Shown here: piece after piece, positions 241 through 843 of the stretch
How the letters are laid out: each line of letters opens with the position of its first letter
How positions within the stretch are numbered: the first letter of the stretch is position 1
Assembly: GCF_024223415.1 (NCBI RefSeq)
Contig: NZ_CP100509.1
Strand: one strand, 5' to 3'
DNA length: 1,593 nucleotides
DNA from: Escherichia coli
GTDB lineage: Bacteria; Pseudomonadota; Gammaproteobacteria; Enterobacterales; Enterobacteriaceae
Translations under genes and position numbers: made by a program
Notes under the pieces: generated by a model
Database searches by the model: none
What the model was told of the DNA's origin: nothing
The model's input: the letters and a program-made list of their open reading frames with translations, nothing else

Positions 241-272
241 CGGGGTGTCGGGGCGAAGCCCTGACACCCCGC
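240..272. repeat. 15-bp GC-rich inverted repeat with GAA loop, immediately 3' of the rep stop codon; possible terminator stem or origin hairpin
   Basis: 240-254 GCGGGGTGTCGGGGC pairs with 258-272 GCCCTGACACCCCGC (14 of 15 Watson-Crick, one G-T). No T-tract follows on either strand. Confidence 0.5.
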
Positions 273-330
273 CAACGCCTCACGGCACGCGAAAAAATTC
301 CGCGTACCGCTCACCGTTCTTGAACTCGTC

Positions 331-355
331 AAACAGAAAATCGCGGGGCCCCGCG
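331..355 (-). terminator. Perfect 14-bp palindrome CGCGGGGCCCCGCG (342-355) followed on the minus strand by ATTTTCTGTTT; possible intrinsic terminator for minus-strand transcription, or a protein-binding palindrome
   Basis: The palindrome is exact. The T-rich run is immediately adjacent only when read on the minus strand (plus-strand 331-341 AAACAGAAAAT). Confidence 0.3.
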
Positions 356-413
356 CCTCCGGCGTGGGTTCCGATTTTGTGATTGACGACGGCACGGGGA
401 AAACGCTGGGGAT

Positions 414-462
414 GGTGGTTGGTGTCACGGAGTGAGGCCAACCACCTGTAAGACGGTTTTTT
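414..462 (+). repeat. Stem-loop (9-bp stem GGTGGTTGG / CCAACCACC with an inner 4-bp stem) followed 10 nt later by T6
   Basis: 414-422 pairs perfectly with 438-446; inner pairing 425-428 with 432-435; TTTTTT at 457-462. The gap between stem and T-run is too long for a canonical intrinsic terminator. Confidence 0.4.
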
Positions 463-500
463 GTTGTTCACAAAATCGGGGTGAAAGTCTGTGGATGAGA

Positions 501-540
501 TGGGTGTAAGTGGGTGGGGTTGGGAGGTTTTGGGTTACTG
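501..540 (+). repeat. Four tandem decamers each starting with TGGG (10-bp phasing); G-rich plus strand
   Basis: TGGGTGTAAG / TGGGTGGGGT / TGGGAGGTTT / TGGGTTACTG at 501, 511, 521, 531. G-runs at 502-504, 512-514, 516-519, 522-524 and 532-534 fit a G3+N1-7 quadruplex pattern. Confidence 0.5.
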
Positions 541-694
541 AAAATCCAGCTCAAAATTCAAGCAAATCTCGCGCGCGATCCTTGTATTTATACTTAAGGG
601 ATAACTCTAGGATTCAAATTGGCCTCCAGCCCTTGTCCCGCAAGGCTTGAGGGCACATTTGCTCCGAAATGGGTTTAGAAGTATTCTGTCGGAA

Positions 695-789
695 GTGGTC
701 GCGTTAAAAGCGACCCCCGCAACGAGGGCAATCGTTCGGGGGCGTGACCACCTGTAGAAATTCGAATTAGTGACACGACAACACAGGTG
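695..789. other. Nested inverted-repeat cluster upstream of rep; candidate origin (sso and/or dso) secondary structure
   Basis: Hairpin 697-702/710-715 (GGTCGC/GCGACC); hairpin 714-725/732-742 (CCCCCG-c-AACGA / TCGTT-CGGGGG); enclosing pairing 695-703/743-751 (GTGGTCGCG/CGTGACCAC); perfect palindrome AATTCGAATT 759-768; inverted repeat 749-755/783-789 (CACCTGT/ACAGGTG). Confidence 0.4.
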
Positions 790-807
790 ATATGGCAATG
801 ATAACAC
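786..807 (+). other. Candidate double-strand-origin nick region (two TGATA motifs) about 40-55 bp upstream of the rep start
   Basis: GGTGATATGGCAATGATAACAC contains TGATA at 788-792 and 799-803. The nick core of the pC194/pUB110 family is CTTG^ATA and the phiX174 origin contains TTGATATTAATAACAC, both as recalled; there is no exact CTTGATA in the window. Confidence 0.3.
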
Positions 808-830
808 GTCAGATGAGCCATCGCCCACAA

Positions 831-838
831 TCGGGTGG
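831..838 (+). promoter_or_regulatory. Shine-Dalgarno-like element for rep
   Basis: GGGTGGTG lies 5-8 nt upstream of the rep ATG; purine-rich and partly complementary to the anti-SD. Confidence 0.45.
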
Positions 839-843
839 TGCGC

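Follow-up and report, generated by a model that had tools for sequence, protein, structure and literature searches.

The window, by which we mean the whole stretch of Escherichia coli DNA analyzed here (1593 bp; contig NZ_CP100509.1), is one complete circle, and this analysis concerns the interval at 241 to 843 that lies between the two ends of its replication gene, rep. A single long reading frame exits the 3′ end and re-enters at base 1, and the window is therefore a complete circular unit; codons 1 to 250 of rep occupy 844 to 1593 on the plus strand (start ATG 844), codons 251 to 329 plus the TAG stop (238 to 240) occupy 1 to 240 on the same strand, and the open reading frame (ORF) obtained by the wrap-around join is 990 nt, equal in length to the rep gene of plasmid pB from Salmonella Enteritidis (NC_005002). 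The Rep protein has exactly the sequence of pB Rep and matches Pfam family Rep_1 (PF01446) over its full length with an E value of 7.5e-85; its translation contains the HUH motif HPHFHTLMM and the motif ETLKY with the catalytic tyrosine, in which the Glu/Tyr spacing is presumably that of pC194 RepA. Megablast against PLSDB returned 536 related records, the best being the ColpVC-type plasmids pB, pVCM01 (NC_019127), and pBuzz (MF156267), which are cryptic plasmids of 1981 to 1983 bp from Salmonella and E. coli and were matched at 99.4 to 99.7% identity. The window is 98.5 to 99.7% identical to these at the nucleotide level and has the same single-strand origin, nick region, promoter, leader ORF, and hairpins, but it lacks 390 bp comprising both inverted copies of an R64-type origin of transfer (oriT) and the DNA between them. 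On sequence grounds the window belongs to the known ColpVC/pB lineage of pKYM-like Rep_1 rolling-circle plasmids, set apart by loss of the oriT cassette; the plasmid type is known, and the oriT-less deletion form is new. We think it reasonably likely that 241 to 843 constitutes the entire cis-acting and regulatory core of a ColpVC/pB-type rolling-circle plasmid without a transfer origin, and that it carries a putative control circuit like that of plasmid R1.

An earlier sequence-only reading of this DNA had called 241 to 843 noncoding, and for sizeable genes this was borne out: the 603-nt interval runs exactly from the Rep stop to the Rep start, all ORFs of at least 25 amino acids within it are broken by frameshifts or stops in relatives at 74 to 94% nucleotide identity, and Pfam searches of five intergenic ORFs and of the 78-amino-acid ORF of pB gave no match. 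A 100-amino-acid minus-strand ORF at 607 to 909 and 63-amino-acid ORFs were rejected as genes, being frameshifted in relatives. The 78- and 143-amino-acid "hypothetical proteins" annotated in pB-type records span the oriT repeat and the single-strand origin; they are not conserved, and their 5′ parts are lost in the window. Rep is the only ORF longer than 120 amino acids, which agrees with the statement that there is no relaxase, mobilization, or cargo gene, and tiny replicons are indeed known in Enterobacteriaceae (ColpVC, pB, pVCM01, and pBuzz, with family units of 1525 and 1660 nt in metagenomes). The claim that Rep is the only credible coding sequence held in part, as Rep is the only sizeable gene but a conserved leader ORF of 19 codons exists. 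An Rfam scan of the whole window at E values up to 10 gave only chance matches to eukaryotic and viral families on a GC hairpin, and a consensus promoter and terminator scan found no promoter and two weak terminator-like sites, both belonging to other hairpins. Three things had been passed over: the single-strand origin, the nick region, and the deletion that makes the interval short.

The double-strand origin core, CCTTGTATTTATACTTAAGGGATAAC, lies at 580 to 605 on the plus strand and, judged by its invariance across the family, is the Rep nick region. Its first 17 nucleotides, CCTTGTATTTATACTTA (580 to 596), are invariant in all relatives examined from the plasmid collection, one of them with 44% Rep identity, and are followed by AGGGATAAC; the motif resembles what we take to be the pC194 sequence, CTTGATAATAAGGGTAAC. 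It also occurs across many Proteobacteria, on contigs about 2 kb long from Acetobacter, Gluconacetobacter, Legionella, Salinivibrio, Vreelandella, Pantoea, Kluyvera, Xenorhabdus, Citrobacter, and others (one genome per species) and in at least 120 metagenome loci, and in nearly all of these contigs a Rep_1 gene (54 to 100% identity) lies 143 to 372 nt downstream of it. The 13 matches to the 17-mer in IMG/VR were all AT-rich chance occurrences without the AGGGATAA continuation. By analogy, the nicked bond would lie between CTTG and TAT at 584/585. Among the matches listed, the metagenome loci L059 to L178 show that the nick motif defines a large and diverse family with units down to 1525 nt (L133, OBLN01016626; the unit of L083 is 1660 nt). 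This family comprises a long-leader group, always with a leader ORF, and a short-leader group (143 to 200 nt) whose members are mostly without one and have a bidirectional terminator-like hairpin at the promoter.

Upstream of the nick region, 326 to 470 aligns as a homologue of the minus-strand origin of the Ff phages. On the plus strand, 326 to 389 corresponds to hairpin B of the M13/f1 minus-strand origin and 414 to 446 to hairpin C, and the sequence TGTAAGACGGTTTTTT, which extends the latter element to 470, aligns with the M13 primer-start region, at what we take to be the position of the primer start itself. A blastn search of 300 to 480 against phage genomes found intergenic regions of Erwinia inoviruses (E value of 9e-5) and M13/f1 5655 to 5750 (pairwise E value of 1.6e-5 against M13). 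In an alignment (A2) of 13 sequences, including M13, the Erwinia inovirus PEar1, ColpVC-like and pKYM-like plasmids, and a site on Salmonella virulence plasmids, 49 columns across f1 hairpins B and C are invariant; the alignment also contains compensatory pairs, and one relative (L018) bridges the window and M13, with 81% identity over M13 5625 to 5757 (E value of 8.6e-30). Folded as single-stranded DNA, 270 to 470 gives hairpins at 283 to 309, 326 to 389, and 414 to 446 (z = -3.0), and the Ff-like element shares its strand with the nick motif, as is required of a lagging-strand origin. Geider and Schaller, and Higashitani and colleagues in 1997, are said to have described the M13/Ff minus-strand primer start and its priming by RNA polymerase, and by analogy the same priming would take place at the single-strand origin of the window. 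A G4-type (primase) origin for 326 to 460, raised by a match near Salmonella RepFIIA, was set aside in favor of Ff hairpins B and C, to which the sequence is directly homologous; phage G4 lay outside the comparison.

Ff-like sequences were also seen elsewhere. Salmonella virulence plasmids (L004, AP011958, pSTMDT12_L, at about 2982 to 3112; also pSLT-like plasmids and plasmids of 59 kb) carry an unannotated B/C element approximately 700 nt 3′ of RepFIIA repA, which may be a lagging- or leading-strand priming signal of that replicon. Four Rep_1 plasmids whose Rep is about 85% identical to that of the window, L017 (CP057265), L018 (CP082402), L048 (Candidatus Pantoea haifensis), and L053 (Kluyvera sichuanensis), have, besides the Ff-like minus origin, a 33- to 59-nt match (76 to 88%) to the M13 plus-origin core with the gpII nick hairpin GTCCACTCTGTTTAATAGTGGACTCTTGTT; by sequence they resemble natural phagemids, and a filamentous phage might be able to replicate or package them.

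Downstream of the nick region, a candidate rep promoter occupies 658 to 687 on the plus strand (-35 TTTGCT/TTGCTC at 658 to 664, -10 TATTCT at 682 to 687) at a conserved position; its predicted start, at approximately 694, implies a rep leader of about 150 nt. The equivalent position has better hexamers in pKYM-like plasmids (TTGACA-17-CAGAAT) and in Kluyvera and Pantoea plasmids (TATTAT and TATGAT), and Legionella plasmids have TTGACT-18-GATAAT there. The sequence-only reading had found no convincing small ORF with a ribosome-binding site (RBS); the leader nevertheless contains a 19-codon ORF, MITRQMSHRPQSGGAHEKP, at 798 to 857 on the plus strand (ATG 798, TAA 857), preceded by the Shine-Dalgarno (SD) sequence AGGTGA at 785 to 790 and stopping 14 nt inside rep. 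An ORF of 19 to 20 codons ending at +14 is present in all of the approximately 35 distinct long-leader sequences, which cover the ColpVC-like and pKYM-like groups and further metagenomic lineages, and it is retained in pKYM-like plasmids with 67 to 75% Rep identity and in one plasmid with 44%. It starts at -46, -49, or -43, and its length therefore changes in frame; position, frame, and length are kept while the peptide itself diverges (MITRQMSHRPQSGGAHEKP, MITHPFCACPYRSRCHAKP, MNIPHQITACPDRSRLNVRR, MLTQDFCPCLLRAGHEKSR). Within this ORF, a hairpin at 819 to 840 on the plus strand, CATCGCCC/GGGTGGTG, is predicted by covariation and by the centroid fold of the leader to sequester the rep SD, GGGTGGTG. 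It covaries to CCTGCC/GGCAGG and other forms, and when the pairs are read on the plus strand, 18 cells are G.U and 9 are mismatches, the corresponding counts for the minus strand being 6 and 21, so that the sequence pattern clearly assigns the RBS hairpin to plus-strand RNA.

The opposite strand of the leader holds a candidate antisense (counter-transcribed) RNA of about 88 nt, at 704 to 791 on the minus strand, consisting of stem-loop I (791 to 747), a terminator hairpin (742 to 714), and then UCGCUUUU. The sequence-only reading had seen no antisense promoter/terminator pair, and the present candidate has a putative form of both: an extended -10 element, TGTTATCAT, at 798 to 806 on the minus strand, which is inferred at the level of the consensus and invariant in the ColpVC-like group, and, about 90 nt downstream, the hairpin and a T-run. 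Counterparts of the extended -10 stand at the equivalent place in Legionella plasmids (TGTTAGAAT) and pKYM-like plasmids (TGGTATATT). Stem-loop I begins about 7 nt downstream of it and combines a stem that is 95% paired with a hypervariable loop of 27 nt; the terminator hairpin, which is strongly supported, is GC rich and 99% paired in 20 sequences, and both partners have changed in 5 of its 11 pairs. Two stem-loops make up the fold of the predicted 88-nt RNA (z = -3.2), which has no Rfam match. Alternative promoters within the loop of stem-loop I were rejected, having poor hexamers in an unconserved loop. The 10-mer ACCACCTGTA occurs exactly at 441 to 450, in the 3′ arm of hairpin C, and at 747 to 756, in the 5′ arm of stem-loop I; chance alone would give about one such repeat in 1.6 kb, yet both copies are in conserved elements.

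Together, the leader features suggest a circuit like those of R1 and the IncI plasmids. In such a scheme, Rep would nick the plus strand at 580 to 605 and displace it, and host RNA polymerase would prime the complementary strand at the Ff-like hairpins. The rep gene would be transcribed from approximately 694 with its 150-nt leader, and its RBS would be locked in the hairpin at 819 to 840, which would open only while ribosomes translate the leader ORF (translational coupling). The antisense RNA, running from the extended -10 at 806 to 798 to the hairpin at 742 to 714, would pair with the leader, including the SD of the leader ORF (stem-loop I); this pairing would block leader translation and leave the RBS locked, and less Rep would be made as copy number rises. 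The statement that copy control must rely on cis structures, Rep autoregulation, or the host is thus unsupported, given a candidate antisense gene, a leader ORF, and an RBS-sequestering hairpin. The sequence-only reading had held that a conserved, expressed small protein or RNA gene within 241 to 843 would overturn it; of these two properties, conservation is what the leader features show, at the level of sequence. It had also proposed measuring copy number after deletion of 300 to 560, which would not probe copy control because the single-strand origin at 326 to 470 would be removed.

Several points weigh against our reading of the interval. Both the rep promoter and the antisense promoter score too low to pass the consensus scan; in the sublineage of the window, 4 nt separate the T-run from the terminator stem, and in pKYM-like plasmids, Legionella plasmids, and L016 the minus-strand hairpin has no clear T-run. 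The stem of stem-loop I itself hardly varies, and the compared sequences are related, so that fewer independent events lie behind the covariation than the counts indicate. Because the antisense -10 and the ATG of the leader ORF overlap, the conservation of this block cannot be attributed to one function. The candidate antisense RNA and the leader ORF are inferred from conservation, and both the exact nicked bond and priming by RNA polymerase are argued by analogy.

Some of these points would fit a reading in which the leader hairpins act only in rep mRNA, by RBS occlusion combined with attenuation or leader-ORF coupling, or else serve Rep as DNA operators, with no antisense RNA. The distance of the T-run from the stem in the window and its lack beside the pKYM-like hairpins speak for this reading; the minus-strand -35 is poor, the covariation of the terminator hairpin is strand neutral, and the SD hairpin clearly belongs to plus-strand RNA. 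We nevertheless regard it as unlikely. Three diverged groups have the extended -10 (TGnTAnnnT) at the same place, in different sequences; canonical terminators, in which a U-tract directly abuts the hairpin, are present on the minus strand in L017, L071, L092, L110, L128, and Acetobacter relatives; and 10 cells of stem-loop I are G.U pairs on the minus strand and mismatches when read on the plus strand, with no G.U cells there.

Less likely still is that 241 to 843 holds only passive cis structures and that copy number depends on Rep autoregulation, on inactivation of Rep, or on host factors, without any gene dedicated to its control. The lack of an Rfam match, of a promoter passing the consensus scan, and of a conserved ORF of at least 25 amino acids would be consistent with this, and the high copy number of ColpVC, about 80 to 115 per cell (PMC6118388), could fit loose control. 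Against it, the leader ORF keeps its frame and end point across lineages down to 44% Rep identity, many lineages have a minus-strand terminator with compensatory changes and a T-run, and the loops of stem-loop I are hypervariable, as are antisense specificity loops, with the G.U asymmetry favoring the minus strand. We return to the antisense and leader-ORF circuit, and suggest, tentatively, that the whole widespread ColpVC/pKYM-type Rep_1 family may combine an antisense RNA bearing a hypervariable specificity loop, a coupled leader ORF of 19 to 20 codons, an RBS-locking hairpin, and a lagging-strand origin borrowed from phage, with some members also carrying a phage plus-origin core and being phagemid-like. 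If this is true, the antisense and leader-ORF circuit would be the incompatibility and copy-number determinant of the family.

The second part of our reading concerns the missing transfer origin. Among 17 plasmid-collection records rotated on Rep, the interval from the Rep stop to the Rep start is shortest in the window (603 nt, against 759 to 3262 nt in the others) because of the 390-bp deletion. In the alignment to pB, window 1 to 265 matches pB 834 to 1098 and window 258 to 1593 matches pB from 1481 onward; the junction is an 8-nt microhomology, GCCCTGAC/GCCCCGAC, at 258 to 265 within a small hairpin, and the missing segment in pB is bounded by inverted repeats of about 80 nt. What is left at 240 to 272 (no strand assigned) is a fused hairpin, GCGGGGTGTCGGGGC-GAA-GCCCTGACACCCCGC, in which the outer 8-bp inverted repeat of an R64/IncI1-type oriT survives as a relic and the deletion junction lies; this explanation led us to drop the hairpin as a rep terminator or RNA gene. 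The ColpVC-type relatives examined have two inverted copies of the hairpin GTCGGGGC-NNN-GCCCTGAC around 130 to 2500 nt of variable DNA, and beyond the hairpin most of them have a second, long covarying hairpin and then CACATCCTGTCCCG. This module is 93 to 95% identical to the site directly upstream of nikA-nikB in IncI-type conjugative plasmids and is present in 3,808 PLSDB records; by this match it is an R64/IncI1-type oriT. Like R64 and orphan R64-like oriTs such as that of pEC156, the relatives hold the full module, namely, the 8-bp inverted repeat, the long NikA-binding repeats, and the nick between CACATCCTG and TCCCG, whereas the window has only the 8-bp-repeat hairpin, and the transfer core (repeat A and the nick region, with CACATCCTG followed by T) is gone. 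Read from the alignment, the deletion joined the 8-bp-repeat hairpins of two inverted oriT copies and removed the NikA-binding repeats, both nick regions, and the intervening DNA. As a consequence of the deletion the window has no oriT, just as had been stated from the sequence, and IncI-type helpers would no longer be able to mobilize the plasmid. PLSDB labels the oriT-bearing relatives mobilizable though they lack a relaxase; the reason would be the orphan IncI1-type oriT, which is often present as two inverted copies. Orphan oriTs like that of R64 function on small plasmids (PMC4743918), and a ColpVC plasmid has been seen to transfer (PMC6118388).

It could be argued that the 1593-bp circle arose artificially, during assembly, amplification, or cloning, from an ordinary 1983-bp pB-type plasmid in which the palindromic oriT cassette was skipped. 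Neither PLSDB nor a set of 5,426 complete E. coli genomes gave a contiguous match to the fused hairpin, and JGI metagenomes gave no match; the 1593-bp form was thus seen nowhere else in these collections, which must be set against our reading and leaves a modest chance of an artefact, and long inverted repeats are hard to assemble and prone to hairpin-mediated artefacts. We consider this explanation improbable all the same. The junction sits at an 8-nt microhomology inside a small hairpin, not at a repeat boundary, and junction-spanning k-mers must therefore exist in the reads; the size of the cassette varies widely among relatives, so that the site is naturally plastic; and deletion between short repeats flanking palindromes is a classic in vivo event in rolling-circle plasmids. 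That the single hairpin is instead an ancestral empty site into which oriT cassettes were inserted later, as cassettes of many sizes and contents at exactly this place might suggest, is very improbable, since the base at 262 (T) is that of the left copy and the flank ACCCCGC that of the right copy, the window, being 98.5 to 99.7% identical to pB-type plasmids with an identical Rep, is nested in a cassette-bearing clade, and the hairpin, whose sequence belongs to the R64 oriT, cannot predate the acquisition of oriT.

Several observations were made on the cassettes of the relatives. In pB (L001; 1073 to 1155 and 1413 to 1495) and at equivalent places in L009 to L011, L015, L016, and L019, the oriT is present twice, inverted, with its own nick sequence in each copy, and transfer could therefore start on either strand; the palindrome that these copies form, with arms of 80 to 100 nt, probably drives deletions and cargo turnover at the site. 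The DNA between the copies (pB, about 1200 to 1260; L009, L010, L011, L016, and L019) has a conserved core in which an inverted repeat, CGAAGTG...CACTTCG, surrounds AGTGCGCAC; this resembles what we take to be a MOBQ-type nick sequence, and the core may be a second orphan oriT. A diverged oriT-like module, with CACATCTTGTCC in place of CACATCCTGTCC and other long repeats, is found in L012 (OX460320), L013 (CP047465), and L014 (OW849275), which PLSDB calls nonmobilizable; it may match a different I-complex helper.

The remaining features of the interval are three. A conserved hairpin at 283 to 309 on the plus strand, hairpin A in our nomenclature, with flanks at 272 to 318, appears in the single-stranded DNA fold and shows covariation (ACGCGAA/TTCCGCGT to CCAGATT/AATCTG); it is distinct from the packaging hairpin A of the phages discussed below. 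The module is 88 to 94% identical to a site just 3′ of the last mob-operon gene of small MOBQ plasmids. We noted that this unit of about 50 nt, consisting of CCAACGCCTCAC, the hairpin, and CCGTTCACCGTT (window 272 to 318; L005, 2153 to 2202; L179, 401 to 447), is common to ColpVC rolling-circle plasmids and to unrelated MOBQ Col156-type theta plasmids, in which it directly follows the mob operon. It is probably a shared terminator-like module, and it appears to be a small exchangeable unit. Between the single-strand origin and the nick region, a variable G/T-rich spacer at 471 to 560 (plus strand) is absent or replaced in three relatives (L012, L013, and L019) and is therefore dispensable; within it, GGGTGGGGTTGGGAGGTTTTGGG at 512 to 534 is a canonical G-quadruplex motif on the strand displaced in rolling-circle replication. 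Downstream of the nick, a conserved hairpin at 622 to 654 on the plus strand, with stem CCTTG/CAAGG and a variable loop, is a possible Rep-binding or enhancer element.

ColpVC is among the commonest small replicons reported in Salmonella and E. coli surveillance genomes, and its usual annotation is "Rep plus hypothetical protein." The present analysis provides a feature map of the rep intergenic region that explains why the hypothetical proteins annotated there are spurious, together with a natural oriT-less minimal replicon of 1593 bp.

A further named system close to the window is pKYM of Shigella sonnei, represented in our comparison by the Col(BS512)-type plasmid NZ_CP151381 (L006), whose Rep_1 initiator is 69% identical to Rep of the window. 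It shares with the window an identical nick core, GATCCTTGTATTTATACTTAAGGGATAA, the Ff-like single-strand origin, the RBS hairpin, and a leader ORF, of 20 codons, that ends 14 nt into rep, but it differs in having no R64-type oriT hairpin, another leader sequence, a stronger promoter, and one more annotated ORF. Rolling-circle replication of pKYM uses a 173-bp origin made up of a RepK-binding core and a downstream HU-binding enhancer (PMC4439123). We found no description of the copy control or minus origin of pKYM or ColpVC in the literature searched, which did not extend to the primary pKYM papers. M13/f1 resembles the window in hairpins B and C, in their order (minus origin just upstream of the plus-strand nick), and in strand; unlike the phages, the window has no homologue of packaging hairpin A and no gpII origin.

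For control, the closest parallels are the theta replicons R1 (CopA-tap-repA) and ColIb-P9/IncI (Inc RNA-repY-repZ), which combine an antisense RNA with translational coupling through a leader peptide. As in these systems, the window has, by sequence, a leader ORF ending just inside rep, an RBS hairpin, and a candidate antisense RNA complementary to the upstream leader; unlike them, it is a rolling-circle replicon of unrelated sequence, with no sign of a CopB-like repressor or an activating pseudoknot. The rolling-circle plasmids pMV158 (RNAII), pT181 (RNAI/II), and pUB110 use a small counter-transcript RNA against the rep leader; pMV158 additionally uses the CopG repressor, and pT181 uses attenuation. 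We know of no coupled leader ORF in any of these three. The RNAII of pMV158 is cited in PMC5714925. We met no description of an R1/IncI-style circuit on a rolling-circle plasmid in the literature searched, and such a circuit is possibly novel; if it is real, its control logic would be either convergent between theta and rolling-circle replicons or transferred from one to the other.

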